The notes beneath the pieces were generated by a model. It was given only the letters and a program-made list of their open reading frames with translations, was not told the origin of the DNA and searched no databases. From assembly GCA_016934675.1 (NCBI GenBank), contig JAFGSJ010000104.1:10861-74860 (forward strand): a DNA stretch of 64,000 nt, in the 5' to 3' direction. Shown in pieces: positions 9,760-45,619 of this stretch; positions within the stretch are counted from its first letter, which is position 1, and every line of letters starts with the position of its first letter. Source of the stretch: a bacterium (GTDB lineage: Bacteria > CSSED10-310 > JAFGSJ01). Made by a program: the position numbers and the translations under genes.

Positions 9760-9825
9760 TCGGACAATCTGTCAGCCTTAATGTCCGCGTCGAAACACTG
9801 TCAAGGTTTATCTTGCCCAGAGCTC

Positions 9826-11745: not shown

Positions 11746-14250
11746 ATGATGACCGACCGCTCCGGGCCCGAAAAAAAACTTGATGGACAGGCAGATCAGC
11801 CGCAGACACCTTCTTCTAAACGGGAATCGGATACTGAGTTGACCGTATCTTCTGATCACGATCCAGTCGGATCATTATCAGATCCGGAAACGGTCTCGAT
11901 CACACCCGATCAGGGGCTGAACGATTCGGGGGCCACTGTTCCGGTCTCACCCAAGCAGGACCAACTTCAAGGCAGTCAGCAGTCAGCTACCGAGACTATC
12001 GGGAAATATCGGCTTGTCCTGAAGCTTGGTCAGGGGGGGATGGGTGTTGTCTACAAAGCTATTGATCCGATCATAAAAAGAAACGTTGCGCTCAAAGTCA
12101 TGATCGTAGCCGAGCAGGAGGGCACGGATTACAGTTCCCGCTTCCTGCGTGAGGCGGAAGCCATCGGACAATTGAATCATCCCAACATTGTAACCATACA
12201 TGATGCCGGATTTCACCAGAACAATCCATATCTGGTCATGGAATATCTGGATGGGCAAGACCTGTCGAAAATTATGGCCCATGACCATCTTCCCGAGATC
12301 AACCAGGTCCTGGACATCTTCATTGCTATCTGTCGTGCTCTTCAATATTCGCATCAGCGTGGCATAGTGCACCGTGATATCAAACCCGCCAACATTTTTC
12401 TCACTCGTGACGGCACTGCGAAACTGATGGATTTCGGCATTGCCAAGATCGAAGACAGCAAATTGACCCGGACGGGCATGCTGGTTGGAACTTTGCAATA
12501 TATGTCTCCCGAGCAGATCGATGGCAAAAATGTGGACCATCGGACCGACATCTATTCGATGGGAGTGGTTATGTATGAAGTTTTTTCGCGCAAGCTGCCG
12601 TACAGCGGCCAGACCCTCTCCGAATTGATCAAGAACACCTTGCTGAATGAGCCGGAACCGTTTGAACCTTTTGACCTTGATTTGCCGCCCCTGCTCACGA
12701 GCGTTATCATGAAATGCCTGGCCAAGAAGAAGGAGGATCGTTATCGGGACATGAACCAGATGGTCGAGGCTTTGCTTTTAGTCAAGGAATACGGCAAGAG
12801 ACAAGATGTAGTAGTTTCTGGGCAACCCGATCCTGACCTTTCGAGCGAGAAGTTGACCGCGGCCACACATCATGGTAGGGTTACCCGACCTTTTCTGCCG
12901 CAGCAAACAGGTCCCGATGAAACAGCTCCGACTCCTTCTGCCGCGAAAAAAAATCCACGCCGTTCAGTGGTCTTACTTTCCCTCCTCATACTCGGCACAT
13001 TGATTATATTTATGATCTGGAAGGGGTATGGCCAAAAGCTCGAGGGGAAGCCAACCCCGAGTGCGGACACGCGGACCGAACAGGTCCGGCCCGACAGCAC
13101 GCAGGCCCGGGAAGCTATCGAACCGGTCGGGCAGCCTTCAGTCAAAAGTGCCTGGGAACATGCTCTTCAGGCAGATACGATTGCAGCGTATGAACAGTTC
13201 ATCACTGATTTCGATCAGGAGCAGTACGCACACGAATACATTGATCAGGCCCGAAACCGGATACGCGCCAAACAGCAGGACCAACCTGCCGCAAAGGATG
13301 AAGCCCAGGCAGGGCTTGCCAACATTCAACAGCAATGGCGCAACGCTCGGGCCCTCGATACCCGGGAAGCCTATCTTGAGTTCATCGCGAAATTCGGCGA
13401 CGATCCGCGGGCCGATCGTGAGGTTTCCCTGGCTCGAACCGGACTTGAATCCATCCTACTCAAACAGCGGGACCTGATCAAAGATCGGATAACCAGCGGG
13501 CAAGCCATGGTTCTTGTTCGGGGCGATACCTTTCAGATGGGTGATACCTTCGGGACAGGGGACCAGGACGAAACGGCCCATCAGGTTTCATTAGGCGATT
13601 TTGTGATGGCTCAGCACGAAGTGACCTTCCTGGAATACGACGAGTTCTGCCGAGCGACCGACCGGACCGGACCAGACGATAAAGGCTTTGGTCGTGACCT
13701 GCAACCCGTGATCAATGTGACCTGGTTTGATGCAATCAATTATTGCAATTGGCTCAGTCAACGCCGGGGCTTGACACCGTGCTATAGCATGAGCCCATCG
13801 GAACCGCCCGAGGTGACCTGCGATTTCTCTGCTGATGGCTTCCGTCTGCCGACCGAAGCCGAATGGGAATTTGCCGCACGCATACGCGGCACAAAGGTGT
13901 TATTCAGTAACGGCTCCAACATAGCGGACCGGAACAGTATGCATTACAATAACCGTCACATGACCGACACCAATAAAACCGGACCTAATCCCGTCGGACT
14001 ATTAGGGCCTAATGCTCTCGAGCTCTACGACCTGAGCGGCAATGTCTGGGAATGGTGTTGGGATTGGTATGGGCCCTATCCGACCTCGCCCGTGACCGAT
14101 CCGAAAGGTCCGGAAAACGGCACAAAAAAAGTCATCAGGGGCGGTAGTTGGTACAATCTCGATGCCTCCTACCTACGCACATCCAACAGGTCCTCGGCCA
14201 GCCCTGCCACACAAGGCCATGATATCGGCTTCAGACTTGTCCGCCGATAA
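11746..14250 (+). CDS. Ser/Thr protein kinase with TM segment and C-terminal FGE-sulfatase (SUMF1-like) domain
   Basis: Hanks kinase motifs are GQGGMGVVYKA, HRDIKPANIF, DFG and YMSPEQ. The TM segment is VVLLSLLILGTLIIFMIW. The C-terminal FGE fold shows HQVSLGDFVMAQHEVT, NVTWFDAINYCNWLS, RLPTEAEWEFAAR, GNVWEWCWDWY and RGGSW...IGFRLVRR. Confidence 0.85.
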   Translation: MMTDRSGPEKKLDGQADQPQTPSSKRESDTELTVSSDHDPVGSLSDPETVSITPDQGLNDSGATVPVSPKQDQLQGSQQSATETIGKYRLVLKLGQGGMGVVYKAIDPIIKRNVALKVMIVAEQEGTDYSSRFLREAEAIGQLNHPNIVTIHDAGFHQNNPYLVMEYLDGQDLSKIMAHDHLPEINQVLDIFIAICRALQYSHQRGIVHRDIKPANIFLTRDGTAKLMDFGIAKIEDSKLTRTGMLVGTLQYMSPEQIDGKNVDHRTDIYSMGVVMYEVFSRKLPYSGQTLSELIKNTLLNEPEPFEPFDLDLPPLLTSVIMKCLAKKKEDRYRDMNQMVEALLLVKEYGKRQDVVVSGQPDPDLSSEKLTAATHHGRVTRPFLPQQTGPDETAPTPSAAKKNPRRSVVLLSLLILGTLIIFMIWKGYGQKLEGKPTPSADTRTEQVRPDSTQAREAIEPVGQPSVKSAWEHALQADTIAAYEQFITDFDQEQYAHEYIDQARNRIRAKQQDQPAAKDEAQAGLANIQQQWRNARALDTREAYLEFIAKFGDDPRADREVSLARTGLESILLKQRDLIKDRITSGQAMVLVRGDTFQMGDTFGTGDQDETAHQVSLGDFVMAQHEVTFLEYDEFCRATDRTGPDDKGFGRDLQPVINVTWFDAINYCNWLSQRRGLTPCYSMSPSEPPEVTCDFSADGFRLPTEAEWEFAARIRGTKVLFSNGSNIADRNSMHYNNRHMTDTNKTGPNPVGLLGPNALELYDLSGNVWEWCWDWYGPYPTSPVTDPKGPENGTKKVIRGGSWYNLDASYLRTSNRSSASPATQGHDIGFRLVRR

Positions 14251-16923: not shown

Positions 16924-17175
16924 TTCATTATTTCGTCATGGATCGGGACCGGAGAAAACAAGGTTATTACCGGGAGCCAGATCGAAAAGGCTTTAGGACA
17001 GGACAATATCCAAAACATGGCCGCGGAAACGGGCACTTCTCCAGCATCGGTGAGTGCCAGTCTTGCCCAACTAATGCCCATGATTATCGATAAGCTCACG
17101 CCCGATGGCAAAGTCACGGAAGGCGGTTTATTGGACCAGGGTCTTGATGCCCTGAAGAAATCACTGTTCAAATAA
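16924..17175 (+). pseudogene. YidB/DUF937-like domain without a start codon, in frame directly behind the TGA stop of the DUF4197 gene
   Basis: The translation is FIISSWIGTGENKVITGSQIEKALGQDNIQNMAAETGTSPASVSASLAQLMPMIIDKLTPDGKV...LDALKKSLFK*. This matches the conserved C-terminal two-thirds of YidB-family proteins. The first ATG (17017) lies after the conserved SWxGxGxN motif. Coding status is uncertain. Confidence 0.55.
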
Positions 17176-17350: not shown

Positions 17351-18499
17351 TCAATCAGGCCTTTTATGATGTTGAGTCATTGATATGCGATAGCCCTTAT
17401 TCCCATTGAATAAGAAAAGACCGGTGCATCTTTTACAGGCAGGGAAATATCCGTGCTTGGCCAGAGCAATTCTGAATGTTCGAAATTTCTTACCATTCCA
17501 AATCTGTTTGTAACTTTGCTCCTTTATATTGCCGGTGGAATAATTGAGATAACAAGGTTTCAGGTCTCCATTTGGAAAAACATACGAAACGGTCCAGGGA
17601 ATAATACATCGCCGTGCTCCCAGATGCTGATCTGGCTGCTGATAATAGGTGATGATCTCATCCGGGCCCAGAAGTGGAAAATAGATAATCTGGATTTTAT
17701 GTGTTTTTCGTTGAACGAGATCAACATTTCGGACGAGAACATGTGGGTCGATATCGCGCAAAGCCAAATTCGGTGTTGATTTCAGCAGTCCAAACTCGGG
17801 GAAATCCCGATTCTGCTGAGCGACTGCCTGCGGGTCCCAAAACCATAAGTGGGTCAAGGTTATCGTATCTCCGCCGATATTTTCAGCCCATTGGACCATC
17901 TCGGGGAAAGATAAATAATTATCATTGGTTAGAATATAATTGATGATTATCCGGGGAATGCAAGAATTCCGTTTTCTCTTAAGGGCAACGATTGTTCTGA
18001 TCCCATTTTCAATTTCATGAAACGCGCCCTTTCTCTGAACAATCCGATCATGGACACATGCGGGACCATAGAGACTTATAATCACGACATCTACGCGAAG
18101 ATCAAGCATACTATGGGCATTTGGGGCAAGCAAGCTTCCATTCGTGGAAATAGTGAGGTTTAAACCGCATTCCTTAATAAAATCAGTCAATTCCAATAAA
18201 TGAGGGTATAAAAAGGGTTCGCCTCCACTAAGCCGTATCTGCGGTTTTAAGAAGGAACATTCCTTGATAAATCGTTCATATTGGGACAATGAAGGGGAAC
18301 TACTCTCGCTGGACTTGTCTCCGCTCGCTTGATCCTTTTCTAAAATACGATGGTAACAATGCGGACAGAAATTATTACATGAAAAAGTCAAATAAAAAGT
18401 AATATCTATTGGCCAGAGTGCAAAGCCAACATGTTTTAACACATAGTCCGGGAGTGAACGTATCCTGGTATTCCCCAACAATTCTTTTAGTTTTTTCAT
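17351..18499 (-). CDS. radical SAM protein with C-terminal SPASM/twitch-like Cys motif (copy 1)
   Basis: The CxxxCxxC motif is FSCNNFCPHC. SGGEPFLYP is present. The C-terminal Cys pattern is C-x17-(Gx4)C...CKRC. ATG 18499 overlaps the stop of copy 2 (ATGA). The longer ORF reaching 18550 would run into copy 2. Confidence 0.85.
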   Translation of the reverse strand: MKKLKELLGNTRIRSLPDYVLKHVGFALWPIDITFYLTFSCNNFCPHCYHRILEKDQASGDKSSESSSPSLSQYERFIKECSFLKPQIRLSGGEPFLYPHLLELTDFIKECGLNLTISTNGSLLAPNAHSMLDLRVDVVIISLYGPACVHDRIVQRKGAFHEIENGIRTIVALKRKRNSCIPRIIINYILTNDNYLSFPEMVQWAENIGGDTITLTHLWFWDPQAVAQQNRDFPEFGLLKSTPNLALRDIDPHVLVRNVDLVQRKTHKIQIIYFPLLGPDEIITYYQQPDQHLGARRCIIPWTVSYVFPNGDLKPCYLNYSTGNIKEQSYKQIWNGKKFRTFRIALAKHGYFPACKRCTGLFLFNGNKGYRISMTQHHKRPD

Positions 18500-19646
18500 G
18501 ATATCAGGGCCTGATTGTGTTTCACATTGAATAAGAAAAGACCGGTACATCTTTTACAGGCCGGGAAATATCCGTGCTTGGCCAGAGCAATTCTGAATGT
18601 CCGGAATTTTTTACCATTCCAAATCTGCTGGAAACTCTGCTCCTTAATATTTCCGGTGGAGTAATTGAGATAACACGGTTTCAGGTCTCCATTAGGAAAA
18701 ACATACGAAGTGGTCCAAGGAATAATACATCGTTGTGCTCCCAGATGCTGATGTGGCTGCTGATAATAGGTGATGATTTCATTCGGGCTCAGAAGCGGAT
18801 AATAGGAAATCTGGATAGTATGTGTTTTTCGTTGAACGAGATCAATTTTTCGGACAAGAGCAATGGGGTCGAGTCCGCAGAGAGTACTATTCGGTGTTGA
18901 TTGCAGCAGTCCAAACTCGGGGAAATCCTGATTCTGTTGGGTAACTGCCTGCTGGTCCCAAAACCATAAGTGGGTTAAGTTTATGGTATCTCCGCCGATA
19001 TTTTCAGTCCATTGGACCATTTCTGGGAAATGTAAATAATTATCATTGGTAAGAATATAATTGATGATTATCAGGGGAATGCAAGAATTCCGTTTTCTCT
19101 TAAGGGCAATGATTGCTCTAACCCCAGCTTCAATATCACGTAACGCGCCCTTTCTTTGAACAATCCGATCGTGAACAAGAGCGGGACCATAGAGACTTAC
19201 AATCACGACATCCACGTGTAGATCAAGAAGGCTCTGGGCATTTGGGGCAAGCAAACATCCATTCGTGATAATAGCCAGTTTTAAACCGCATTCCTTAATA
19301 AAGCCAGTCAATTCCAACAAATGGGGATATAAAAAGGGTTCACCACCACTAAACCGTATCTGCGGCTTTAAAAAGCTACATTCTTTGATAAAACGTTCAT
19401 AGTCGGACAATGAAAGAGAACTGTCCTCGCCGGATCCTTCTCCGCTTTTGTGATCCTTTTCTGAAATACGATGGTAACAATGTGGGCAGAAATTAGGACA
19501 TGCAAAAGTCAAGTAAAGTGTAATATCAATTGGCCAAAGTGCAATGCCAACATTCTTTAACATGTAGTTCGGGAGAGACCGTATCCTGGTATTTCGCAAC
19601 AATCCTTTTAGTTTTTTCATGATATCAGGGCCTGATTGTGTTTCAC
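17404..19646. repeat. head-to-tail tandem duplication, 2 x about 1121 bp, each unit carrying one radical SAM gene
   Basis: CATTGAATAAGAAAAGACCGGT starts at both 17404 and 18525. CATGATATCAGGGCCTGATTGTGTTTCAC occurs at 18497-18525 and at 19618-19646. The units have diverged, with many substitutions. Confidence 0.9.
18496..19620 (-). CDS. radical SAM protein with C-terminal SPASM/twitch-like Cys motif (copy 2)
   Basis: 374 aa, roughly 80% identical by eye to copy 1. It has FACPNFCPHC and SGGEPFLYP. Its last ~10 codons (NVKHNQALIS*) are encoded by sequence that is the 5' leader in the other repeat unit. Confidence 0.85.
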   Translation of the reverse strand: MKKLKGLLRNTRIRSLPNYMLKNVGIALWPIDITLYLTFACPNFCPHCYHRISEKDHKSGEGSGEDSSLSLSDYERFIKECSFLKPQIRFSGGEPFLYPHLLELTGFIKECGLKLAIITNGCLLAPNAQSLLDLHVDVVIVSLYGPALVHDRIVQRKGALRDIEAGVRAIIALKRKRNSCIPLIIINYILTNDNYLHFPEMVQWTENIGGDTINLTHLWFWDQQAVTQQNQDFPEFGLLQSTPNSTLCGLDPIALVRKIDLVQRKTHTIQISYYPLLSPNEIITYYQQPHQHLGAQRCIIPWTTSYVFPNGDLKPCYLNYSTGNIKEQSFQQIWNGKKFRTFRIALAKHGYFPACKRCTGLFLFNVKHNQALIS

Positions 19647-19697
19647 GTCGTCACTGTCTCAACTCATTAACAGACAGGCCATAAACCCGGCAAGTCA

Positions 19698-21599
19698 TTA
19701 CAAAAAATCATCCAAGTTGGCCTGTGGTGGTTCATTGAAATCATTATCAATATTGATGCGGCACCAGAGCTCTAATAGGGCCAGATTCCAGATATAATAC
19801 GGTATGGGCTGCCTGCTTAGAAAAAAATCCCTTTTCAGTTGCTCGATTATTTCGGGATTGAAGAAGCCTCTTTTGATAATGGCTTGTTTTGATAACAATC
19901 TATTGATCGGGATTGATAATTCATTACGAGCCCACAAGGCCAATGGAATGATGAAACTCTGCTTTTTACGTTGTAAGGTGATCTTGGGCAAGAGATCATG
20001 ACAGGCCAGAATCTGCATATATCGTAATGTGCCCCTATTATAAAGGCTGTTCACCGGAATTGAAGCAATTGTGTCCAAGACCCGCCTGTCCAGAAATGGA
20101 CTACGCGTTTCTATTGAATGGGCATGAGACATCGTACTTAAATCGCGCAGCATGATATGTGCGATCTCGTGGCAAACCAGCAAATACATAAATTGGCTGA
20201 TAAGCTCTTGAGAATTAACCGTTTGAAAGAGGTCACTGACCAGATCAACAGGTCCGGGTTTGCCATCGAGTTCAATGGCTAAATCCTTGGTGAACAGTTT
20301 TTTGGTCAACGGCTCTTTGAAAAGAAAGCGCATATCCATGTAGATATTTATTGGTGTGTGACTAAGTGCTTCAAGTCGTCTGAATTTTTGAATCGGTGAG
20401 ATTTTTTCCGGTAAGAAACCGATCATTGCTCGAATGATCTGCTGCATTGATGCAGGCATGTTTTTCCAGAGCTTGATCAGTGTTTGCAATCGAAATAGTC
20501 GTTTATACCACATGCTACCGATAAAAATTTCGTCACCTCCCAGACCGGATAGAACAATATCGAGATACTTCGCGGCAAAAGATATACTGAAATAGCGATT
20601 GAGGGCATCCCCGCTTGGACTGTTCAAATGCCATGTCAATTCTGGCAGGGCCTTGATAAGGATATCTGCACCAACGTTATACTCATGGTGTTCCGTTCCA
20701 TACATCTGGGCAATTGTTCGGGCAAATTGAAATTCATTGAATGAGGCGAATTTTTTATCATCACCATAGCCCAGAGTGAATGTTTTCAGGGTACAGCCTG
20801 TTTTCTCACTAGCCAGCCCAACTATTGTACTGGTGTCATGTCCTCCGCTCAAGAATGAACCACAGACCCCGTTAGCGGGTAACGCACACCAGACTGATGC
20901 GGACAATACTTCCCGTAATTTCTTTGCCATTAGTACATCTGAAGCTGTTTGATCCGGTATTCTCGCGAACATTTGCCAGTATCGATGAAGAGTACTTCTC
21001 CCCTCTTTCCAGGCCAAATAATGTCCCGAGGGGACTTGAATCACTGTTTCGTATGCGGTTAAGGGATCTGGAACGGAAATCATCGCCAGAAAAAATGGAA
21101 TGGAATGATGATTCATTCTTTTGTCAATCAATCCTGTCCAATGAATGGCTCGAATTGTCGAAGCAAAGACGATGTAACCCTGTTTTTCCGCAACATACAG
21201 GGGTTTACTTCCACACTGATCCCGGATACAAAACAATTGTCTGGTGTTTTCATCCCAGATGATCAGAGTAAAGAGTCCTGCCAATTCGGAACATCGTTCG
21301 TGAATATCAAGACCTGCGAAGAGGTCCGCCAACTCTTCCGGGTTGAGAACATGTCTTGAAAATTCAGTGTTCTGGCCAGAATCATGAACAATATAACCAT
21401 CAACAATAAATGTTCTGTTTCTTTTATTGTCATGAAAGATGAATCCATCCAAATCAGTACTGAAATTCTGAAAAAGGAAAGAGAAAGACCCCGCTTGATA
21501 CCAGGCTGGTGCGTTCTTTGTATCGGCAAAGAGATAGGTATCAATTCGTGTTTGATCTGCTTGTGCCAATTTTTGTGATATGCCTAAAAAATTTGCCAT
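19698..21599 (-). CDS. asparagine synthetase B-like amidotransferase/adenylating enzyme lacking the N-terminal Cys nucleophile
   Basis: The PP-loop is SFLSGGHDTS. The AsnB N-domain signature is GLFTLIIWDENTRQLFCIRDQCGSKPLYV. The N-terminus is MANFLGIS rather than MCG. GAAGAGGG lies about 10 nt upstream of the ATG. Confidence 0.8.
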   Translation of the reverse strand: MANFLGISQKLAQADQTRIDTYLFADTKNAPAWYQAGSFSFLFQNFSTDLDGFIFHDNKRNRTFIVDGYIVHDSGQNTEFSRHVLNPEELADLFAGLDIHERCSELAGLFTLIIWDENTRQLFCIRDQCGSKPLYVAEKQGYIVFASTIRAIHWTGLIDKRMNHHSIPFFLAMISVPDPLTAYETVIQVPSGHYLAWKEGRSTLHRYWQMFARIPDQTASDVLMAKKLREVLSASVWCALPANGVCGSFLSGGHDTSTIVGLASEKTGCTLKTFTLGYGDDKKFASFNEFQFARTIAQMYGTEHHEYNVGADILIKALPELTWHLNSPSGDALNRYFSISFAAKYLDIVLSGLGGDEIFIGSMWYKRLFRLQTLIKLWKNMPASMQQIIRAMIGFLPEKISPIQKFRRLEALSHTPINIYMDMRFLFKEPLTKKLFTKDLAIELDGKPGPVDLVSDLFQTVNSQELISQFMYLLVCHEIAHIMLRDLSTMSHAHSIETRSPFLDRRVLDTIASIPVNSLYNRGTLRYMQILACHDLLPKITLQRKKQSFIIPLALWARNELSIPINRLLSKQAIIKRGFFNPEIIEQLKRDFFLSRQPIPYYIWNLALLELWCRINIDNDFNEPPQANLDDFL

Positions 21600-21700
21600 C
21601 GGATATCGGCCCTCTTCTTTATGATGGCGATGATCGTGTTATCACGGACAGATTGTTTTGTTCATGACCGATTTGAAATCGGTATTCTCCTATTCCCAGG

Positions 21701-22981
21701 TCAAACTCTCAAGTACCGGCTGATCATATTCCTGGTTTTCGCACAACTTTTAGCGGTAAAAAGTAAACATTTCAATTCCGCCTTATGTCTTCCTCGTGGT
21801 ACGAATACGATATCGTTCCAACTGCTGATATTGTCCCAATTCCCAATTGAAAAGGTCCCATTCCGGCTTGCGATACGATGAAGCTCTGATCCCGGAAAGG
21901 GTAAACAGGCTTGAAACAATGTTTTTTCTGCCGGGAGTGAAAGACCGAATAAAATTGTCTTGATTGTGTCAGAAAAAGTCTCGGTGGGAAGCCCCAGGGA
22001 AAATGTTACGATGATGTCAATGGGGATCTTTTTGAATGAGCGGATTTTCTGTTTGACCTCATCAAAATCGAGTGTTATCCTTAGTATATTCAGGAGTTTG
22101 GGAATGCCCGTGCCGAGTCCCAGAAATATCTGTCGGCAACCGGCTTCATACATGAGTTCGCAGAGCTCTTTATCAAGGTGGTTGATTCGGGTATAGCATC
22201 TCCAGGTCAGATCGAGTTTACGTTGCAGAAGTGATTGGCACAATGCAACCACTCGTTGTCTATTTAAAGTAAAGGCCTCGTCAAAAAATTCGATATCACG
22301 CGCTCCGAAAACATCATAAAGAGTTTCAATCTCAACGAGCATTCTGGCCAGCGAGTATTCTCTCACAACTTTTGAGGGCGGTGTTCTGACTGGACAATTC
22401 GCACAGTTATAGGGACAGCCGCGGTGGGTAAGCATATGCCCTCTGATAATTGGTTTGTGTGAATAGAATAAATCCCATGCTGGTTGAGGCAGCGTATCGA
22501 GATCATGGATGATATCTGAATCCGGGTTTGTGACAAGGGAATCATGGTCCATTATCACGGTCCCCGGAATGCTTTTGATATCCCCTTTATGTTGAAGTGC
22601 AGTGATAAATGCCTGTGTTGCCGTTTCACCTTCACCCCTGACCACCAGGTCAACAACCGAAGAGGACAAAGCGTGCTCCGGAAAATTGGTAACCTGGGTC
22701 CCCCCCAGAAGGATGAAACAGTTTTTATTTTTCTGCTTGATCCATTTGCAGAGGGCAATACATTGCTCATAATTTGTGGCAAAAACCTGCATTCCAACAA
22801 ATGAAAGCGAAGATATCCTCGGTTCAAGTTCAGTCTTGATGACGTGCCATGGTTTATTCCAGAGCACACACACATCAAGACCGATTTGTTGAAGCAGGCC
22901 GGCTATATAGGCAATACCAATGGGCAGTATTTCGGGAGCAGAGATGGCGTTTTGGTGAGGGAGAACCAAGGCAGCCTTCAT
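21701..22981 (-). CDS. B12-binding-domain radical SAM protein
   Basis: The N-terminal Rossmann-like, B12-binding-type domain includes ILLGGTQVT. The radical SAM motif is HRGCPYNCANC. 426 aa. Confidence 0.85.
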   Translation of the reverse strand: MKAALVLPHQNAISAPEILPIGIAYIAGLLQQIGLDVCVLWNKPWHVIKTELEPRISSLSFVGMQVFATNYEQCIALCKWIKQKNKNCFILLGGTQVTNFPEHALSSSVVDLVVRGEGETATQAFITALQHKGDIKSIPGTVIMDHDSLVTNPDSDIIHDLDTLPQPAWDLFYSHKPIIRGHMLTHRGCPYNCANCPVRTPPSKVVREYSLARMLVEIETLYDVFGARDIEFFDEAFTLNRQRVVALCQSLLQRKLDLTWRCYTRINHLDKELCELMYEAGCRQIFLGLGTGIPKLLNILRITLDFDEVKQKIRSFKKIPIDIIVTFSLGLPTETFSDTIKTILFGLSLPAEKTLFQACLPFPGSELHRIASRNGTFSIGNWDNISSWNDIVFVPRGRHKAELKCLLFTAKSCAKTRNMISRYLRV

Positions 22982-23170
22982 GGTTCATTCATTTCCGTCA
23001 TTATGTACTACTCCTTGATGCTAATCAAGAATCTATCTGACACACTATAAAATAAAAAACAGGTCGGGTCAAACTTTTTCGCTCTTTACGGATTGCATTT
23101 ACTATAAATATTATGTATATTCTAGCCAGTTCCACTGGGATCTCAGTCAATAATCCGGGCATGACGAAAA

Positions 23171-24112
23171 ATGGGGATCGAACATAACATTTTCAAGCTA
23201 CTGCTCAAAGAACGACAATACCTGGTTCCTCACGGAAAAATCATGGTCTTTGGTGTTCAGGATATCTGGTTCAGCTATGATCAAGCGATCGGAATGTTGG
23301 AGCAGGCTGGCTATCCCTATACCGCCATACCGGAATCCGAGCGAAAACAATCGACATCCTTTTTGATTCGTGCATATTTCAATGATGCCCGGACTGAGTT
23401 TGTCCATGTTGAAGATTTATTTAAAATTCTAGGCTATCAAGTGTGTCAGACCATGGATGTGATTGCCCGAGAGTCACCACAATTCGTCCATGATCTGAAT
23501 AAGCCGGTTGATCGTTTAATGCATGGCAACTATCAGACTGTTTATGATGGGGGAGTGATTGAACATGTATTCAATCTTCACATGGGCTTGCAAAATATCC
23601 ATGATCTCCTGGAGCCCGGGGGGACGATTGTTCATCACACACCGCTAGCCGGCTGTCTTGATCATTCCTTCTTTTATCTCAATCCTTGTTTTTTTTATGA
23701 CACCTATGGTGAAAACGGTTACACGGACATGAAAGCCTTCTTTGTTGAACAACCCCATGCCCTCGATTTTCGACGTCTGGCCAATCCGAATACTCGGTAT
23801 CGATTCACTGAATATACGTACGGTGAAGCATACAATTTTATTCCGCGTAATGCTTACAATCCACTCGATTTTATTTTTTTCGCCCGTAAACCGGATCAGC
23901 ATAAACCGTTTCAATATGGTCTTCAGGGATTGTTTCGGACCATAATCGAGCCGAAGAGCGATGCTGAAATACGATTACCACGACCACGGTGGTGGACAAT
24001 TATCCGCACAATGGTCCGGGCTATCGATCGATATGTTCCGGCATCATGCCTGTTTTGGTGGCGGGTCATTACTTTAAGAGCCCCGAAAAGGAACAAACAA
24101 TTCCGCCTGTAA
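23171..24112 (+). CDS. hypothetical protein, distantly class I methyltransferase-like
   Basis: 313 aa. It has KIMVFGVQD (a degenerate motif I) and YDGGVIEHVFNL...LLEPGGTIVHHTP (post-motif II/III-like). The function is not secure. Confidence 0.5.
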   Translation: MGIEHNIFKLLLKERQYLVPHGKIMVFGVQDIWFSYDQAIGMLEQAGYPYTAIPESERKQSTSFLIRAYFNDARTEFVHVEDLFKILGYQVCQTMDVIARESPQFVHDLNKPVDRLMHGNYQTVYDGGVIEHVFNLHMGLQNIHDLLEPGGTIVHHTPLAGCLDHSFFYLNPCFFYDTYGENGYTDMKAFFVEQPHALDFRRLANPNTRYRFTEYTYGEAYNFIPRNAYNPLDFIFFARKPDQHKPFQYGLQGLFRTIIEPKSDAEIRLPRPRWWTIIRTMVRAIDRYVPASCLFWWRVITLRAPKRNKQFRL

Positions 24113-24180
24113 GGCGTGTATGACTATGGTTATTTGAGGCTTCACGAGTCAGCCCGACCGGTTTCAACGATGTGATTGGA

Positions 24181-25155
24181 CTATAACCGGTATTCACGCG
24201 AGAGTCTATCGAGTCTTTGCATTTCTCCCGATGTCAGTACGAGCTGGAGTGCTTTGACATTGTCTTCGACCTGCTCAGCTTTTGAAGCACCGGGAATAGC
24301 CACAATACATTCACCATGAAAATTGATAAGCCAACTCAGGGCTACCTGGGCCGGCGTTGCACCATAAGTATCAGCAATCTCTCCGAGGGCTTGAATAATC
24401 GGACGGCTTTTCTCGATTGCTGCCGAGCTAAATTTCATCCGCCACCTGCGAAAGCCTGACAATTGCTTCGTCCTTTCCGGGTTGCCATGGAATTTTCCGG
24501 TTATAAGACCTTGTTCGAGAGGTGAATAAGCGATAATGGAACAGCCGATCTTCCTGGCGTTTTCCAGGATACCGTTGAATTCGATACTGCGATCAAGCAG
24601 GCTATACTTTGTCTGGTGAGATGCGAGAGGAATGCCACGTAGGGCCAACTGTTTCGCCGCCCTGTCTACAAGAACAGGTGAAAAATTACTGACACCCACC
24701 GCACGAATTGTGCCCTCTTCTACAAGGTCAGCCATGACGTTCATCTCGGCCTCAACACTGGAAAAAGACCAGGGTTGATGAATCTGGTGAAGATCTATGG
24801 GATAACCCCGAAGGGAGTTGATACGTTGACCAATGGTTTTCTTGATCGAACCGGCAAAACGAAATGCTGGCCACCATTTTGTTGCGATCAGGACATCGCC
24901 CTCCTTTTTGCTGGCATTCTGTAAAGCTTGCGCTAGAGCTTGTTCTGAGTTACCAAAGCCATAGATCTCGGCGGTATCGAACCAATTAATACCGCCTTTC
25001 AGGGCAGTCATCACAATCGCATTGATCTCAGCTTGTGTTATTGTAGACCAATATGATGCTAATCCTCCCTCATCCCCCGCAAATTGCCATCCGCCCAAAC
25101 CAAGAGGGGTTATCTCCACATCAGTCTTGCCCAGAAACCGCTTTGGTATGACCAT
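24181..25155 (-). CDS. aldo/keto reductase
   Basis: 324 aa. Motifs are LGLGGWQF, INWFDTAEIYG, IATKW, IDLHQIH and AIPGASKAEQVEDN. Its start is 10 nt downstream of the preceding radical SAM stop. Confidence 0.9.
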   Translation of the reverse strand: MVIPKRFLGKTDVEITPLGLGGWQFAGDEGGLASYWSTITQAEINAIVMTALKGGINWFDTAEIYGFGNSEQALAQALQNASKKEGDVLIATKWWPAFRFAGSIKKTIGQRINSLRGYPIDLHQIHQPWSFSSVEAEMNVMADLVEEGTIRAVGVSNFSPVLVDRAAKQLALRGIPLASHQTKYSLLDRSIEFNGILENARKIGCSIIAYSPLEQGLITGKFHGNPERTKQLSGFRRWRMKFSSAAIEKSRPIIQALGEIADTYGATPAQVALSWLINFHGECIVAIPGASKAEQVEDNVKALQLVLTSGEMQRLDRLSREYRL

Positions 25156-25165
25156 AAAGCAACTC

Positions 25166-26617
25166 CTAACATCTTGGAGATGGCTTGACGATTGGCCTGG
25201 TGCCGATGCTTCTCACCGTTTTAAGCACCCCCCGGACTGATTTGATTTGAAGGAGGGCAGACAGAATGATCCATACCCCCATCTTACTAAAATTCTTCAT
25301 CCTCAGAGGCGATTGGATCATCATTCTCACGATATTCAGCAGTACATGAGGTTGGAGATAAAATATGCGCCTCATCGTGCGATAATGCATTTCGGCCGCT
25401 CTTTGAGCCTTGTTATCAAGAAAAATCGGTATATCCGTTCGACGCAAGGTGATCAAATCGATCCAGCGCTTCCTGATTTCCGAATCCTGAGGGAGTCTAC
25501 GATAAAACGGTGAATTGGGAACAGGACAATGATAAGAAAAAACACAGTAATGAATCTCAAGATTTTTCAACAAATCATACGTTTCCTGCATTGTTTCACA
25601 TGTCTCACCGGGAAAACCAACCACAAAAGTGCCGCCACACTCATAATTAAATCTTTTCACTACTGATAGTTTCTCCCGAATCATGGCTTTGGTGATTCCT
25701 TTGTTCATCGTGTCAAGAATCTTGTCAGACCCGGATTCCAGACCAAAAGTAATTGTATAGCAGCCGGCTTCTTTCATTGCTTCGAGCAGTTCGCCGTCGA
25801 TGGTATCTATTCGGGAAAAAACTGACCAATTAATCCCGATCTTTTCCTGAACCAGCCCCCGACACAAATCAAGAACACGCTGTTTATCTGAAGTAAAGGT
25901 ATCATCGCACACATATATTTCCTGGTATCCCAATCGAGTTATCTCTTTGAACTCCTCCAGAATGTTGGCAACACTTCTGCATCGATGCTGGCCGCCATTA
26001 TCACAAAACACGCATTGAAAAGGACATCCCCGGGCAGTGACGATGGTCGCGCATGGCTTCTTTCTATTCATCATGTGAAATTGATCCCCCTTAAACAGAT
26101 GGCGTGCCGGAAAGGGTAGCGCATCCAGGTCTTGGATGAGTGGTGCCTGACCATGACAAATGGTCTCGCCTCCAGCTCGATAGATCAAGCCTTCAGGCTT
26201 CGCTTCCGTTTTTCCGGATACTACGTCCAGCAAAGCCACAAATGCATGTTCAGCCTCACCTGATTGACCAAAGTCAAAACAAGAGTGCACCATAATCTCG
26301 TGGGGGAAATAAGTCACACCCTTACCACCGACAATGATAGGAATATCTTTGATACTCTTTATGAATGAAGCTACTGCGACCGCATCCAAAACAGTGAACA
26401 GAGAAACGGAGATCCCGACGAGATCAGGCTTGAATCTGGTCAGAATATCCCTGACATCTCTCGGACTCGTGGACTCAACATTCATATCGAGAATACGAAC
26501 CGTGTGCGCTGCTCGCTCTGCTTGAGCTGCCAGATAACCCAAACCAAGGCAGGGAAGTGAAAATTTTTTGAACAGAATTTTCTTGAATTTGTCTGGATTA
26601 ATCAGAAGTATTCTCAT
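25166..26617 (-). CDS. B12-binding-domain radical SAM protein
   Basis: 483 aa. The N-terminal domain (MRILLINP..., IIVGGKGVT) is followed by ARGCPFQCVFC. Confidence 0.85.
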   Translation of the reverse strand: MRILLINPDKFKKILFKKFSLPCLGLGYLAAQAERAAHTVRILDMNVESTSPRDVRDILTRFKPDLVGISVSLFTVLDAVAVASFIKSIKDIPIIVGGKGVTYFPHEIMVHSCFDFGQSGEAEHAFVALLDVVSGKTEAKPEGLIYRAGGETICHGQAPLIQDLDALPFPARHLFKGDQFHMMNRKKPCATIVTARGCPFQCVFCDNGGQHRCRSVANILEEFKEITRLGYQEIYVCDDTFTSDKQRVLDLCRGLVQEKIGINWSVFSRIDTIDGELLEAMKEAGCYTITFGLESGSDKILDTMNKGITKAMIREKLSVVKRFNYECGGTFVVGFPGETCETMQETYDLLKNLEIHYCVFSYHCPVPNSPFYRRLPQDSEIRKRWIDLITLRRTDIPIFLDNKAQRAAEMHYRTMRRIFYLQPHVLLNIVRMMIQSPLRMKNFSKMGVWIILSALLQIKSVRGVLKTVRSIGTRPIVKPSPRC

Positions 26618-27048
26618 AAAAATGCAGCATCCCCTATCATCTGCTCTTTATCTGGCAATGTTTCCGGATGAAATTGGGAATAATCGTGAAGAAAAAGAAT
26701 AATGTAAGCCCAATAGCACTACGGATTATGGTCCTGATTGAATATTGCCTGCCCATTATTCTCATAATGCGTCTTTATCAAGCGATGAGCCAGTCACAAC
26801 CGGCAATATCGATGATTTAATTACATACCTGAGAACGATGTGTCTGTTGATTTGTTTCATGATCTGCTCACTGGTTTCGGGTATTGATTGAAGCAATGAA
26901 AATATCGCACAAGAAAATCATAACAGATTACACCTGAAAAATGCAATACCGCCTGTCATAGAATGATTGTTCATCTTTCAAGACCGTCAAGGAATAGTGC
27001 CTAATGTTGGTATTCAGGTTATCATTGCTACCTCTTTTTACAATACCC

Positions 27049-29343
27049 TTAGAAAGTGATCGCAAGGCCGCCATACATCTTTCTGCCCACAAGCGGCGCA
27101 TAGATATAGGCGGCGGTATCTTCCTGTTCGGCATTGTAGATGGTTTCCTGCGTATAGTCGAAAAGATTGTCAACACCGAAAAACAGTTCAACAGTATCAT
27201 TCATGAATGATCGGGTGAGTTTCAGATCGACGAGACCATAGTCGGTGACATGATCGATGGAATAGTCGAGTTCGTCAGAGCCCTCAATAACAAGCTCCTT
27301 TTCTACGTATTGCCTGCCGATGTAGCGACCGCTGAGGGCCAGATCGACGCCGGTGTGTTTTTCCTTATAGCCGATGGTCATCTGGGCGGTGAAGTGAGGC
27401 ACCCGTTGGATATATGTGCTTTCTTCCCACTCGGGATCGAGCTGCTCATCATACCGGGCATCGACAAAGGCAACAACCAGATCGACCTTGCATGGCCAGA
27501 TATTCCACAATGATGCATTGACTTCAAGGCCCTGTGTGAAGGCATCACCGGCATTATCATAGATGCCGAGGTTGAGTTCCTCATCATATTCAAGAGCGAT
27601 CTTATCTTTGATATCGGTCCGAAAGAGATTGAGGTCGAGCGTGTAACCGACACCGTAATAGGTCGAACTCAGCGTGTAACTCCAGGATTTTTCGGGTTTG
27701 ATACCGGGTGAGACATCGACCAGCGGTGCGGCTGAGCACAGGTGAAGATCTTCCGCAAAGAGATAGGGGACCTTGAAACCGCCCCCGAAGCCTGCCCGCA
27801 AGGCAAGGTTACCGGTGATATCCCACTTCACGGCCAGTCGCGGGCTGAAGGCCGAGTCATCGACCAGGGTGCTGTCAACATGATCATAGCGCCCGCCGAT
27901 AACAACATTTACCCCGCTACCGCCTAAGTTGATCTCGTCCTGAAGAAAGAGACCATAGACATCCGCTTCCATTTCATCCTGGGCTTCCCAATTGATCATC
28001 TGTTCAAGGAGCTCGGTCCTGTAGTTTGCACCTAAAGAAAAAGTGCTGTTACTGAAAAAATCCCGCGACAAAACAGCGTCATATTGATAGATCGTCTCGT
28101 CCGAGTCAAAGGGGCGCTCTCCATTGGTTGCATCACGAACATGATTTGATGTTAATGCCGTCATTTTCACTTCTGTTGTATCAGCGAATGCACCCGTATA
28201 ACTAAAACCGTATTCTCTTCTGCGCGTGGTAATGTGTTCCGCATCCGGATCGAGAGCATCATCGATCCCGCGAGTGTATCCAATGATATCGCCCTCTTCA
28301 TCATAGACAGGCTTACCGCCCGGAATATAGCCACCCTTTCTGAATTCGTCGATAATCCTTGAGAACAGAGTGACCCGGTGTTTGTCATCGAGAAAATAAT
28401 AATGCATCTTCAGACCGAAGTACGTGTTATCCCGTTCAACCATGTCGGTATAACCGTCATCATTGTCATCGACAAAATCATTCTGGTGCTTGGTCGCGCT
28501 CACGATCCCGGCAAAATTGCCCTGTCGCATGGAATAACTGCCGGTCAATTCTGACTCGTTAAACTCTCCGATTGAGGCTTTGAACAGTCCAGAAGGAGCT
28601 ATCTCACTCGGTTCCTTGGTAATGATATTGACCACCCCACCGATCGCTGAAGCTCCATACAGGGCTGAACTTGCCCCCTTCACCACCTCGAGACGTTCAA
28701 TATCGGATGGGGGAATCTGCCTGAGCAGATATATGCCGGCCAGAGCACTATAAATGGGTTGTCCGTCAATCAGCAACGCAATGTAACCACTCTCGAGACC
28801 ATTCATCCTGATACTCGAGAAATTGCAATTCGTACACGATGTCTCGACATTTAAACCCGGGACAATACCTTTATCGAGGACCTCATACAGATTGTTCGCA
28901 CCACTTTTCTCAATTTCCTGTCTGTTGACCAATTCAACCCGGACCGGCAGCTCCCTGATTGTTCTCTCCGTTCGAGTCGCGGTTACCACAAGCTGGTCCT
29001 CAACGACAAACACCCGTAAGGCAATATCTACACACTTCGGACTCGCGCTATCAATTTCGACCGTCCTTTTCTGTTCCAGATAACCCGGTGCACTTGCCAC
29101 AAGCATGTATTTCCCGGACGCAACATCTTTGATCGTATACGAACCGTCAATGCCCGTCATGCTCCGACAAGATGTGCCAATGATGGAAACCAAAGCGTGT
29201 CTCACCGGTTCACCGGTTAATTCATCCATAACTTTTCCCGTAATGATACCATGCTCATGATTGAGCTGTGGAAGAGCGATTGCAGGCAAAGCCATTAAAA
29301 AACAGATAGCCGCGGACAACAGTGTGACGATAGATCTGGACAT
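27049..29343 (-). CDS. TonB-dependent receptor with N-terminal carboxypeptidase-regulatory-like domain
   Basis: Signal peptide, then ITGKVMDELTGEPVRHALVSIIG...DGSYTI (CarbopepD_reg-like). Plug motifs are VVVTATRTERT and DGQPIY. The beta-barrel ends in ...YGGLAITF. ATG 29343 is preferred over TTG 29361 because AAGGAG lies 7 nt upstream. Confidence 0.85.
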   Translation of the reverse strand: MSRSIVTLLSAAICFLMALPAIALPQLNHEHGIITGKVMDELTGEPVRHALVSIIGTSCRSMTGIDGSYTIKDVASGKYMLVASAPGYLEQKRTVEIDSASPKCVDIALRVFVVEDQLVVTATRTERTIRELPVRVELVNRQEIEKSGANNLYEVLDKGIVPGLNVETSCTNCNFSSIRMNGLESGYIALLIDGQPIYSALAGIYLLRQIPPSDIERLEVVKGASSALYGASAIGGVVNIITKEPSEIAPSGLFKASIGEFNESELTGSYSMRQGNFAGIVSATKHQNDFVDDNDDGYTDMVERDNTYFGLKMHYYFLDDKHRVTLFSRIIDEFRKGGYIPGGKPVYDEEGDIIGYTRGIDDALDPDAEHITTRRREYGFSYTGAFADTTEVKMTALTSNHVRDATNGERPFDSDETIYQYDAVLSRDFFSNSTFSLGANYRTELLEQMINWEAQDEMEADVYGLFLQDEINLGGSGVNVVIGGRYDHVDSTLVDDSAFSPRLAVKWDITGNLALRAGFGGGFKVPYLFAEDLHLCSAAPLVDVSPGIKPEKSWSYTLSSTYYGVGYTLDLNLFRTDIKDKIALEYDEELNLGIYDNAGDAFTQGLEVNASLWNIWPCKVDLVVAFVDARYDEQLDPEWEESTYIQRVPHFTAQMTIGYKEKHTGVDLALSGRYIGRQYVEKELVIEGSDELDYSIDHVTDYGLVDLKLTRSFMNDTVELFFGVDNLFDYTQETIYNAEQEDTAAYIYAPLVGRKMYGGLAITF

Positions 29344-29372
29344 GGTGATTCTCCTTTGCAAAACAGGGTTAC

Positions 29373-29469: not shown

Positions 29470-29718
29470 CTATGACGCGGAAATTTTCTCCTTTATCGGT
29501 ATATCAAACCAACCGCTGTCCAAATTCATGATGATCTCATTCAAATCGAGAAACATCTCCCGTTTGCACCGGGGACAACGAATGGTGATCCCATTCCTTG
29601 ATACTCTCGCAAGAAGTTTGTTGCACATACAGCGGATATCAGCATTGCCGGGAAGACACTCTTTCAACTCAGCAGATAAAGCTGCTCCACCCTTACTATT
29701 TATAGATTTCGTGCTCAA
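29470..29718 (-). CDS. Com-like zinc-ribbon protein
   Basis: IRCMCNKLLARVSRNGITIRCPRCKRE resembles the phage Mu Com zinc-ribbon pattern (RCxxCNKLL...IxIxCPRCK), with CxC in place of the first CxxC. The start is TTG 29718, with AGGAG 7 nt upstream. It overlaps the Fur-family stop by 23 nt. Confidence 0.5.
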   Translation of the reverse strand: MSTKSINSKGGAALSAELKECLPGNADIRCMCNKLLARVSRNGITIRCPRCKREMFLDLNEIIMNLDSGWFDIPIKEKISAS

Positions 29719-30154
29719 TTATCTTCTCCTGACATTCCGGGCAAATACCCCATAATTCCAAAAAATGATACTTTAACTTAAAACCGTATCTCCCGGCAAT
29801 CTTATCTTGTAAATCCTCGATCTCGTTATCAAAAAATTCAACAACCTTACCACAATGGTCGCACACCAGATGATCATGATGCGTATGCCCAAAAATATGT
29901 TCATAAACCTGTTCTTCATTACTACTGCACACCGACGCCTTTCTGATTATTCGTGATCGAATCAAATGCGGTATTGTCCGGTATACAGTTGCCCGACTGA
30001 TCTTATGACCAGAAGCTTCCAGATGGTGGAGCAACTCAGTTACAGTGAAGTGATCATGAAGCTGCACAAGCGATTCAAGGATGGTCTTCCTTTCAGATGT
30101 CATCCTTAAATTCTGACCCGATATAAATTGCTGAAATCGTTTTTGTGACCCCAT
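29696..30154 (-). CDS. Fur-family metalloregulator
   Basis: 152 aa. It has a winged-helix segment (ISRATVYRTI), HTHHDHLVCDHCGKVVEF and a C-terminal CPEC pair. AAGGAG lies 8 nt upstream. Confidence 0.9.
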   Translation of the reverse strand: MGSQKRFQQFISGQNLRMTSERKTILESLVQLHDHFTVTELLHHLEASGHKISRATVYRTIPHLIRSRIIRKASVCSSNEEQVYEHIFGHTHHDHLVCDHCGKVVEFFDNEIEDLQDKIAGRYGFKLKYHFLELWGICPECQEKIIEHEIYK

Positions 30155-33660: not shown

Positions 33661-33865
33661 CGTCGACACCTACACATCCATCCAATCTTGTCTATTTATC
33701 GTTAAAGCACACGCTGACCCGAACATTATCTGCCTCTTGTAGCCCGCAGCGCCGACATTGAATTGCTGAAATACTAATTACTAAAAGCTAGCACAAAATT
33801 GTACTTGTTGCAAAGCGACGATATGAGGTATTGTAATAGTGCTGAAAAGAAAAAGGGAGGAGATC

Positions 33866-45503: not shown

Positions 45504-45619
45504 AGCGATCCTTTTCTTCGTATCACGCCGTCGAATGAATCCAGACAAATGCACAGACCCTTCTTGAAACTCGACCGAAGGTTTCATTTCCAGCTCGTCA
45601 GTCTAATAATGTCGTTTGT

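Follow-up and report, generated by a model that had tools for sequence, protein, structure and literature searches.

Beta-lactam synthetases do without the N-terminal cysteine of other asparagine synthetase (AsnB) homologs. Sets that combine a radical S-adenosylmethionine (SAM) enzyme carrying a B12-binding domain with a radical SAM enzyme of the SPASM type occur in pathways of ribosomally synthesized and post-translationally modified peptides (RiPPs), and in the ChuA-ChuW-ChuY system a receptor, a radical SAM enzyme and a reductase serve the anaerobic breakdown of haem. BtrN is the 2-deoxy-scyllo-inosamine dehydrogenase of butirosin biosynthesis, and BlsE is a cytosylglucuronate decarboxylase. 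In the C3'-deoxygenation of apramycin, AprD4, a radical SAM enzyme acting as a diol dehydratase, works with the NADPH-dependent reductase AprD3 (PMC5461906). The locus compared here with these systems is a block of seven enzyme genes at positions 17351-26617 of a 64,000-nucleotide stretch of bacterial DNA (contig JAFGSJ010000104.1, positions 10,861 to 74,860; lineage CSSED10-310, JAFGSJ01), referred to as the window. The block encodes two radical SAM (rSAM) enzymes with an auxiliary domain (twitch rSAM A and B), an AsnB-like enzyme, two rSAM enzymes with a B12-binding domain (B12-rSAM-1 and B12-rSAM-2), a methyltransferase-like (MT-like) protein and an aldo/keto reductase (AKR).

The original prediction, made from the sequence before any database search, described seven clustered enzyme genes, four of them radical SAM, and both the list of open reading frames (ORFs) and Pfam agree. 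All four rSAM proteins match PF04055 (49.5-76.8 bits, cut-off 29.5), which places them in the radical SAM superfamily, and each carries a CX3CX2C cluster motif (C58, C41, C189 and C198). The description of the cluster as an orphan also holds: no curated NCBIfam cut-off is reached by any of the seven proteins, and judged in this way none of them belongs to a characterised clade. No substrate gene is recognisable in the block, again as described. Small ORFs were listed down to 20 aa and the intergenic ones compared with Pfam, and none matched; what remains consists of shadow ORFs and of short ORFs between the genes that match no family. In Pfam and the ORF listing, no glycosyltransferase, transporter, protease, RiPP recognition element (RRE) or prenyl gene is found inside the block. 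The product class, as had been foreseen, is not directly readable from the block's genes.

The preferred reading, held tentatively as possible but somewhat short of probable, is that the block was acquired horizontally as a mosaic of three small transcription units, whose enzymes tailor a carbohydrate-type substrate. One unit would consist of B12-rSAM-2 and the AKR, a second of B12-rSAM-1, the AsnB-like enzyme and both twitch rSAMs, and the third of the MT-like gene. Candidate substrates are surface glycans or glycolipids, modified at a sugar or uronic-acid residue, and small molecules that derive from a sugar or cyclitol and are made by genes elsewhere in the genome. Each reaction step is inferred from the domains, motifs, gene pairings and neighbourhoods that are observed. 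B12-rSAM-2 would abstract hydrogen at a sugar carbon, so that a diol or amino-alcohol is rearranged or dehydrated to a carbonyl, as with HpnJ and AprD4. The translationally adjacent AKR would reduce the resulting carbonyl with NAD(P)H, following the deoxygenation logic of AprD4/AprD3. The twitch paralogs could oxidise, epimerise or decarboxylate secondary-alcohol or uronate positions. The AsnB-like enzyme would adenylate a carboxylate and, because its glutaminase cysteine is absent, couple it to free ammonia or to an amine, giving an amide or lactam. B12-rSAM-1, its conserved partner, may carry out a methylation or rearrangement on the same substrate, and the MT-fold protein may add or bind a methyl group. 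A sugar or cyclitol is favoured as the substrate because the closest characterised enzymes, HpnJ, AprD4, BtrN and BlsE, all act on sugars or cyclitols, and glycan biosynthesis because the neighbourhoods of the relatives lie repeatedly in polysaccharide loci.

B12-rSAM-2 finds its best NCBIfam match in HpnJ (TIGR03471), its residues 38-447 aligning to positions 45-460 of the 472 in the model, at 168.2 bits against a cut-off of 577.6 and thus outside the family. Over 87% of the length of B12-rSAM-2, its identity to annotated HpnJ is about 30%, and unlike HpnJ it has no other hpn genes around it in the window. Among solved structures, AprD4 is the best match of both B12-rSAMs (95 bits for B12-rSAM-1, 77.5 for B12-rSAM-2), followed by MgmA; with the AprD4 model NF033070 they score 110.5 and 89.4 bits (cut-off 500) and are not members. 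Both fit the domain architecture of class B rSAM enzymes, with PF02310 matches of 44.0 and 63.2 bits (cut-off 32.1) and the B12-binding domain N-terminal to the rSAM core. Binding and use of cobalamin cannot be read from the sequence alone, because AprD4, the nearest solved structure, carries a B12-type domain yet does not bind cobalamin (PMC12931638). The family of B12-rSAM-2 is large, with 2501 matches. Its nearer members (33-45% identical) make up a large family that is uncharacterised and extends across candidate-phyla bacteria, archaea, Omnitrophica and Elusimicrobia.

Exactly 10 nt separate B12-rSAM-2 from the AKR gene, as the original prediction stated. This order, an rSAM enzyme followed by an NAD(P)H-type reductase, resembles AprD4/AprD3, the likeness lying in the role of the reductase. 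Unlike the aminoglycoside pathways, the window has no 2-deoxy-scyllo-inosose synthase, aminotransferases or glycosyltransferases of that kind. The AKR belongs to its superfamily by Pfam (PF00248, cut-off 24 bits) and has the D-Y-K-H tetrad (D60, Y65, K93, H126, placed by motif rather than by structural alignment). Its relatives in the PDB are generic sugar and carbonyl reductases.

The two twitch rSAMs are, on the evidence of their alignment, tandem paralogs (85.5% nucleotide identity, about 83% amino-acid identity, synonymous divergence dS 0.35). Their ratio of non-synonymous to synonymous divergence (dN/dS), 0.32, indicates purifying selection on each of them. Gene A has an ATG that shares an ATGA junction with the stop codon of gene B, and on this ground the true start of gene A is probably 18499 rather than 18550. 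In twitch rSAM B the cluster cysteines are C41, C45 and C48. PF13186 (SPASM) is matched at 57-59 bits, yet after residue 250 only four cysteines follow, in the pattern CX17CX38CX2C, instead of the seven or eight of a SPASM motif. In a phmmer alignment of residues 293-361 with BtrN 164-238, C298, C316, C355 and C358 pair one-to-one with the cysteines of the BtrN twitch domain, which are the ligands of the BtrN auxiliary cluster. The auxiliary domain is, by these motifs, of the twitch type with a single, BtrN-like auxiliary cluster. Of the initial "SPASM/twitch-type" label, the twitch part is retained and the full SPASM part, with only four cysteines present, is not.

Searched against the PDB, the twitch rSAMs come closest to BlsE, PqqE and BtrN, all remote. 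The rSAM core is nearest to BlsE among solved structures, and the matches to BtrN and BlsE reach 28-40 bits with partial coverage; the window proteins exceed BtrN in length by about 100 residues. The best NCBIfam match is a tungsten-cofactor maturase (102 bits for twitch rSAM A and 92 for B, cut-off 380), and 67-72 bits with NF033640 (N_Twi_rSAM; cut-off 170) place both outside that subfamily. Homologs are few: 19 among 5.8 billion proteins, the best non-self one 45% identical and the next 29%. A defence role as prokaryotic viperin (pVip) was considered and rejected, the PADLOC matches covering the rSAM core alone (model positions 2-101 of 257) and NF038283 giving 58-63 bits against a cut-off of 180.

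The AsnB-like enzyme begins with MANFLG in place of the MCG that provides the N-terminal nucleophile, Cys2 being changed to Ala. Because this catalytic cysteine is replaced, the enzyme is predicted to be incapable of glutamine hydrolysis. The ATP-binding PP-loop, SGGHD at residue 251 against the pattern SGGxDS, is intact, and the enzyme should still adenylate a carboxylate. TIGR01536 (asn_synth_AEB) is its best NCBIfam match (211.7 bits, cut-off 267.1), and TsnB9 (7ylz) its best PDB match at 62.6 bits, with a beta-lactam synthetase at 27.9 bits. In fold, intact PP-loop and absent cysteine it resembles the Cys-less AsnB homologs, namely the beta-lactam and carbapenam synthetases, the lasso cyclases and the hydroxamate-forming TsnB9. 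The pairing with a B12-rSAM also recalls the carbapenam synthetases that occur with class B rSAM enzymes (ThnK/L/P and TokK, of the thienamycin type); unlike carbapenem clusters, the block has no crotonase or 2-oxoglutarate oxygenase.

Among the 120 best homologs, Ala2 is shared only by the AsnB-like enzyme, P0021 and P0022, a three-member clade in which it is invariant. P0021 and P0022 are 31% identical to the window protein over the full length, and each is directly followed by a B12-rSAM 36-39% identical to B12-rSAM-1 (loci L006 and L007). The Ala-type AsnB/B12-rSAM pair is thus present in three unrelated uncultivated lineages, those of the window, L006 and L007. Within 10 kb of the pair, the 58-kb contig of L006 has no gene for a twitch rSAM, an AKR or an MT-like protein, and the surroundings encode FHA and transmembrane proteins, an amidohydrolase and DciA. 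More speculative, and unlikely, is the reading that the Ala-type AsnB and its adjacent B12-rSAM represent an undescribed two-enzyme chemistry, in which a non-peptide substrate would undergo radical C-H functionalisation coupled to the formation of an amide or lactam that needs no glutamine. In the genome of the window, the pair would be combined with the duplicated BtrN-like twitch enzyme and the rSAM/AKR deoxygenation-type pair to give a new class of modified sugar or pseudo-sugar. Separately, a conserved small membrane protein is encoded directly 5' of the pair in both other lineages (L006 9398-9997, L007 1-246; 34% identical across 80 aa). It might act together with the pair or serve as its substrate, and no homolog of it is found in the window.

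The same features bear on a RiPP tailoring cluster, proteusin-like or lasso-like, in which the rSAMs, the Cys-less AsnB-like enzyme as a cyclase and the methyltransferase would act on a ribosomal peptide whose precursor gene would be too short, divergent or distant to be recognised. This alternative is very unlikely. The Cys-less AsnB homologs include lasso cyclases, and the AsnB-like enzyme does match the lasso-peptide cyclase model NF033535, yet with 140.5 bits against a cut-off of 525 it is not a member. ApyD, a RiPP enzyme, is the best NCBIfam match of B12-rSAM-1 (121.2 bits with HpnJ TIGR03471, cut-off 577.6, being lower), but its 128 bits are again far under the cut-off of 750, and the RiPP C-methyltransferase model TIGR03975 gives 55-86 bits against 281.85. 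Known RiPP pathways combine a B12-rSAM with a SPASM-rSAM, and the block resembles polytheonamide-like proteusin clusters in having B12-rSAMs, a further rSAM and a methyltransferase-fold protein; against this, the auxiliary domain here is a four-Cys twitch domain, and peptide maturases typically have a SPASM domain with two clusters. Only about 35 residues precede the cluster motif of the twitch rSAMs, too short for an RRE, and in or next to the block no RRE/PqqD (fused or free), leader peptidase, lasso B protein or exporter is present. Lasso clusters differ in having a B protein (a transglutaminase-like protease), an RRE and a precursor. Unannotated intergenic ORFs of 42-45 aa exist at 26637..26765, 26762..26896 and 23025..23162, but the small intergenic ORFs have neither a family match nor a core rich in Cys, Gly or Ser, and the neighbourhoods of the relatives contain no precursor-like genes. 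The proteusin-like candidate of the original prediction is not upheld, for want of a precursor with leader, an RRE, a protease and an exporter and given the twitch-type domain.

The MT-like protein has 4189 relatives (HMMER, 1.84 billion representatives), which shows that family and gene are real. A model built with AF2 from an alignment of 40 relatives has a predicted local distance difference test (pLDDT) score of 88.7 and a predicted template-modelling score (pTM) of 0.85, and replaces a single-sequence model at pLDDT 35. Foldseek returns 197 PDB matches at E<=1e-3, the top ones all class I SAM-dependent small-molecule methyltransferases, though with TM-scores of only about 0.35, and the modelled protein has the Rossmann-like fold of class I methyltransferases. 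Motif I reads FGVQD (family consensus LTLGVQD) and departs from GxGxG. Its catalytic competence is therefore uncertain, the glycine-rich SAM-binding motif being degenerate. The earlier "methyltransferase-like ORF" is in this way partly sustained: the family is real and has the methyltransferase fold, but motif I is degenerate and the sole Pfam match, to Methyltransf_23, stays below its cut-off.

The carbohydrate reading draws on the neighbourhoods of distant relatives. Elusimicrobia loci retrieved in the AsnB scan combine an AsnB with several B12-rSAMs and a SPASM-rSAM, 25-33% identical to the window proteins. In one of them (L012), the order is epimerase, GT-like gene, SPASM-rSAM, B12-rSAM, glycosyltransferase (GT) of family GT4, methyltransferase, B12-rSAM, AsnB and GT2. 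Six loci with 90 ORFs contain 17 rSAM genes (13 with a B12 domain), 13 GT2, 8 PMT_2, 7 AsnB, 7 epimerases or dehydratases and 6 methyltransferases. In L051, the gene of a 34% homolog of B12-rSAM-2 (P0149) is translationally coupled to one for an amidotransferase, whose stop codon it overlaps; the same locus has an initiating Bac_transf transferase, GT2, PMT_2 and a Wzm/Wzt exporter. In L009, a 35-37% homolog (P0143) lies directly 3' of a TMEM260-type GT-C. The 29% twitch homolog P0004 (L005) sits among an NTP-transferase, a Methyltransf_21 gene, a sulfatase-family gene and an epimerase. The nearest MT-like homolog (42%, L055) is placed between a Wzx-type flippase gene and an epimerase, and one at 32% (L056) adjoins an RMNT_CmcI methyltransferase; for the MT-like family, related loci yield only generic methyltransferases at low scores. 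Twitch homologs at 22-23% identity occur on plasmids of cultured Clostridium and Streptomyces with acyl carrier protein and Gfo/Idh/MocA genes, together with an ATP-grasp gene in the former and dTDP-glucose genes in the latter. Like the polysaccharide loci L012, L018, L025, L030, L043 and L051, the block has the same four enzyme types and an AsnB-type gene abutting a B12-rSAM. Unlike them (25-34% identity), it lacks GT2, GT4, PMT_2, epimerases, Wzm/Wzt and initiating transferases, and it has Ala2 and an AKR where they keep the AsnB cysteine and have no AKR.

In L052 (183-7033), an Omnitrophica-type contig, four tandem B12-rSAMs of about 476 aa each, 34-39% identical to B12-rSAM-2, are followed by a SPASM-rSAM, forming an rSAM-only cassette. 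In L012 (12622-17052), genes of the restriction-modification or mobile type (HsdM, DUF3800, PRiA4_ORF3, RadC) interrupt the locus, and two more B12-rSAMs lie beyond. Elusimicrobia loci with a nitrogenase paralog and rSAM genes were set aside as a different system.

Several points weigh against a carbohydrate pathway and hold it to the tentative level given above. No glycosyltransferase, flippase or nucleoside diphosphate (NDP)-sugar gene is found in the block, and the nearest GT-C gene (PMT_2, 9826..11427) lies at a distance of 6 kb and is not related to those of the comparison loci. The glycan context comes from relatives at 25-42% identity only, the closest relatives (36-47%) lying on contigs without glycan genes, of which L002 and L007 are short. 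The AsnB enzymes of the glycan loci all retain the catalytic cysteine, and the window's enzyme does not. No AKR homolog is found beside a B12-rSAM at any relative examined. The top NCBIfam matches also include non-sugar enzymes (PhpK, ApyD, BchE, AhbD and NirJ) at similarly low scores. Finally, the seven-gene set is a singleton and may not be one pathway. Among the product candidates first proposed, modification of a glycan or sugar alone gains circumstantial support, from the neighbourhoods of the relatives; the RiPP and the metallophore gain none.

The candidate that the enzymes modify a membrane lipid, such as a hopanoid-like side chain, a lipid of the ether or ladderane type, or the head group of a lipid, is very unlikely. 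HpnJ is the best named relative of B12-rSAM-2, and the models TIGR04072 (a lipid-biosynthesis B12-rSAM) and HpnR give 136 and 93 bits, but these scores are well under the cut-offs, and HpnJ acts on the sugar part of the hopanoid, so that this explanation overlaps with carbohydrate tailoring. The conserved small membrane protein ahead of the AsnB/B12-rSAM-1-type pair in L006 and L007 and an LPG_synthase_TM gene after the B12-rSAM of L051 would also fit a lipid; against it, the 64-kb window contains neither a squalene-hopene cyclase gene nor any hpn, prenyl, acyl or ether-lipid genes.

The arrangement of the block (Table 1) and its base composition bear on the reading as an acquired mosaic. The original prediction called the block AT-rich, and its GC content is indeed 0.439 against 0.511 in the rest of the window. 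The GC content at third codon positions (GC3) is 0.41-0.47 in the block genes and 0.54-0.65 in core genes, among them CoaBC and the Na:Ala symporter. These deviations from the core genes are consistent with horizontal acquisition. Further AT-rich stretches occur at 8-12 kb and 29-33 kb of the window, and the composition of the block is therefore distinctive rather than unique. The intergenic gaps inside the block are small (10-190 nt). The MT-like gene forms a divergent pair with B12-rSAM-1 and a convergent one with the AKR gene, an arrangement by which the block comprises at least three transcription units. The first reading of the genes as one cluster is accordingly kept for the contiguous block and dropped for a single operon. 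The 189-nt divergent spacer has sigma-70-like sites at 23072-23044 on the minus strand (10/12) and at 23085-23114 on the plus strand, which are consensus matches only. Rfam families, including the cobalamin riboswitch, give no match. In the search for mobile-element signatures no tRNA genes were found, and the sole flanking repeat, the two-copy family D4 at 16548 and 30759 (28 nt, 79% identical), is probably a chance match.

Table 1. Coordinates of the block genes, the divergent spacer and the bordering genes in the window.
Feature	Position	Strand	Length	Match or remark
Twitch rSAM A (SPASM-rSAM-A)	17351..18499 (listed 17351..18550)	-	382 aa	Pfam Radical_SAM + SPASM; CNNFCPHC
Twitch rSAM B (SPASM-rSAM-B)	18496..19620	-	374 aa	Pfam Radical_SAM + SPASM; CPNFCPHC
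AsnB-like adenylating enzyme (putative)	19698..21599	-	633 aa	Pfam Asn_synthase 182.9 bits
B12-rSAM-1	21701..22981	-	426 aa	Pfam B12-binding + Radical_SAM; CPYNCANC
Divergent spacer B12-rSAM-1 / MT-like gene	22982..23170	.		Promoter-like sites, both strands
MT-like gene, class I methyltransferase fold (modelled)	23171..24112	+	313 aa	Methyltransf_23 23.8 bits (cut-off 27)
Aldo/keto reductase (AKR)	24181..25155	-	324 aa	Pfam Aldo_ket_red 196.9 bits
B12-rSAM-2, HpnJ/AprD4-like	25166..26617	-	483 aa	Pfam B12-binding + Radical_SAM; CPFQCVFC
TonB-dependent receptor (TBDR)	27049..29361	-		Plug, barrel, CarboxypepD_reg domains (Pfam)
Fur-family regulator	29696..30154	-		Pfam FUR 103.8 bits

Conservation elsewhere is partial. 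The original prediction held that its interest would lapse if the genes were not conserved together in other genomes, and the outcome lies halfway: two different gene pairs recur, and the full seven-gene set is found nowhere else. The recurring pairs are the Ala-type AsnB with B12-rSAM-1 (L006, L007) and an AsnB with a twitch rSAM (L002). In the second, the 45% twitch relative lies directly 3' of an AsnB on 4-kb contigs (L002, L003), and that AsnB keeps its catalytic cysteine. An alignment of the Ala-type AsnB, run against 185,579 species genomes in a collection that does not contain the window's own genome, retrieves generic AsnB at about 30% only. A metagenome scan with the twitch alignment finds L002 again and nothing else. 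Five window proteins, three of them from the block, are found in the collection, all as singletons at 90% identity. As far as the data searched extend, the seven-gene combination appears unique.

These results also suit a different explanation, in which two or three unrelated modules have accumulated in one AT-rich acquired region and do not form one pathway. The modules would be B12-rSAM-2 with the AKR, the Ala-type AsnB with B12-rSAM-1, the duplicated twitch rSAM and the MT-like gene. This is unlikely on balance. The full set occurs nowhere else, the pairs recur alone and differ between contigs (L006/L007 against L002 with its Cys-type AsnB), at least three transcription units are predicted, with the MT-like gene on the opposite strand, and the nearest B12-rSAM-2 relatives (44-45%) have other small rSAM genes, and no AKR, as neighbours. 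Against separate modules stand the tight packing and the common low GC3 of the block genes, and AsnB, several B12-rSAMs, a SPASM-rSAM and a methyltransferase co-occur repeatedly in other lineages, which makes chance adjacency less likely.

Beyond B12-rSAM-2, the block is bordered by a TonB-dependent receptor (TBDR) and a Fur-family regulator, as first reported, both found by Pfam on the same strand. The GC3 of the TBDR gene is 0.543, like that of core genes, and a gap of 431 nt separates it from B12-rSAM-2; the TBDR is probably not part of the block. Between Fur and the TBDR lies a very strong terminator (29413-29381, minus strand), a 14-bp hairpin with 8 GC pairs followed by T8, and no terminator is detected between the TBDR and B12-rSAM-2. 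No Fur box is found in the promoter regions, the best matches to the 19-bp consensus falling within coding sequence.

On these data depends the alternative that haem, a corrinoid, a siderophore-like compound or another metal-containing cofactor or metallophore enters through the TBDR under Fur control and is processed by the block. It is quite improbable. The minus-strand order Fur, TBDR, B12-rSAM-2, AKR, with no terminator detected from the TBDR to B12-rSAM-2, would fit such a system, which would be analogous to ChuA-ChuW-ChuY. The best subfamily models of the TBDR are those for haem/haemoglobin (148.7 bits) and B12 (144.1 bits), and in NCBIfam the twitch rSAMs match the tetrapyrrole enzymes AhbD and NirJ and B12-rSAM-2 matches BchE and BzaD. 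Every such score is, however, far under its cut-off, and the GC3 of the TBDR matches the core genome and not the block. The 431-nt gap and the Fur/TBDR terminator likewise argue against a common unit, no promoter has a Fur-box-like site, neither a cobalamin riboswitch nor another Rfam family is matched, and no siderophore synthetase, periplasmic binding protein or ABC importer is found. The proposal of a metallophore imported by the adjacent receptor gains no support, in view of the receptor's GC3, the lack of a Fur box in the promoters, the terminator and the missing riboswitch.

Other observations concern the rest of the window. At the border of the AT-rich block, just 3' of a DUF4197 gene, a 52-aa ORF (17017..17175, plus strand) matches the C-terminal end of PF20159 (YidB-like; positions 97-131 of 132, 26.9 bits) and may be a truncated remnant or a frameshifted gene. 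A second AT-rich island (8038..11427, GC3 0.42-0.47) consists of a type I phosphodiesterase-family gene and the PMT_2 gene of GT-C type mentioned above, neither of which has meaningful similarity to the GT-C and sulfatase genes of the comparison loci. An 834-aa fusion of a Ser/Thr protein kinase domain with an FGE-sulfatase (formylglycine-generating-enzyme-like) domain is encoded at 11746..14250 (plus strand). Near Fur lie genes for a small protein (30616..31029, plus strand), whose prokaryotic RING-finger match of 24.6 bits is weak and falls short of the cut-off, and for a TPR-CHAT protein of 1185 aa (33839..37396, plus strand). At 42318..49309 (minus strand), two large proteases are encoded side by side, one a tricorn-like S41/PD40 protein of 1089 aa and the other a C25 gingipain-family peptidase of 1229 aa.

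In conclusion, the enzymes come from known superfamilies, their combination is unique in the data searched, and they may or may not form one coherent pathway. Taken alone, the window adds one case to the very many orphan rSAM clusters of metagenomes and makes no long-standing question directly testable. Twitch and B12-domain rSAMs and AsnB homologs are enzyme types that have repeatedly yielded new reactions, and the block, should it be a single pathway, would bring uncharacterised twitch and B12-rSAM clades and a glutamine-independent AsnB homolog into the tailoring chemistry of carbohydrates and natural products. The most useful leads are the Cys-less AsnB/B12-rSAM pair and the co-occurrence of AsnB, B12-rSAM and SPASM-rSAM in the polysaccharide loci of uncultivated phyla. 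The latter is perhaps the more general one, and no paper describing AsnB with B12-rSAM in glycan loci was found in the literature searched. The recurrence of AsnB, B12-rSAMs, a SPASM-rSAM and a methyltransferase in polysaccharide loci of Elusimicrobia, Omnitrophica and related groups suggests that radical chemistry is carried out on surface glycans.

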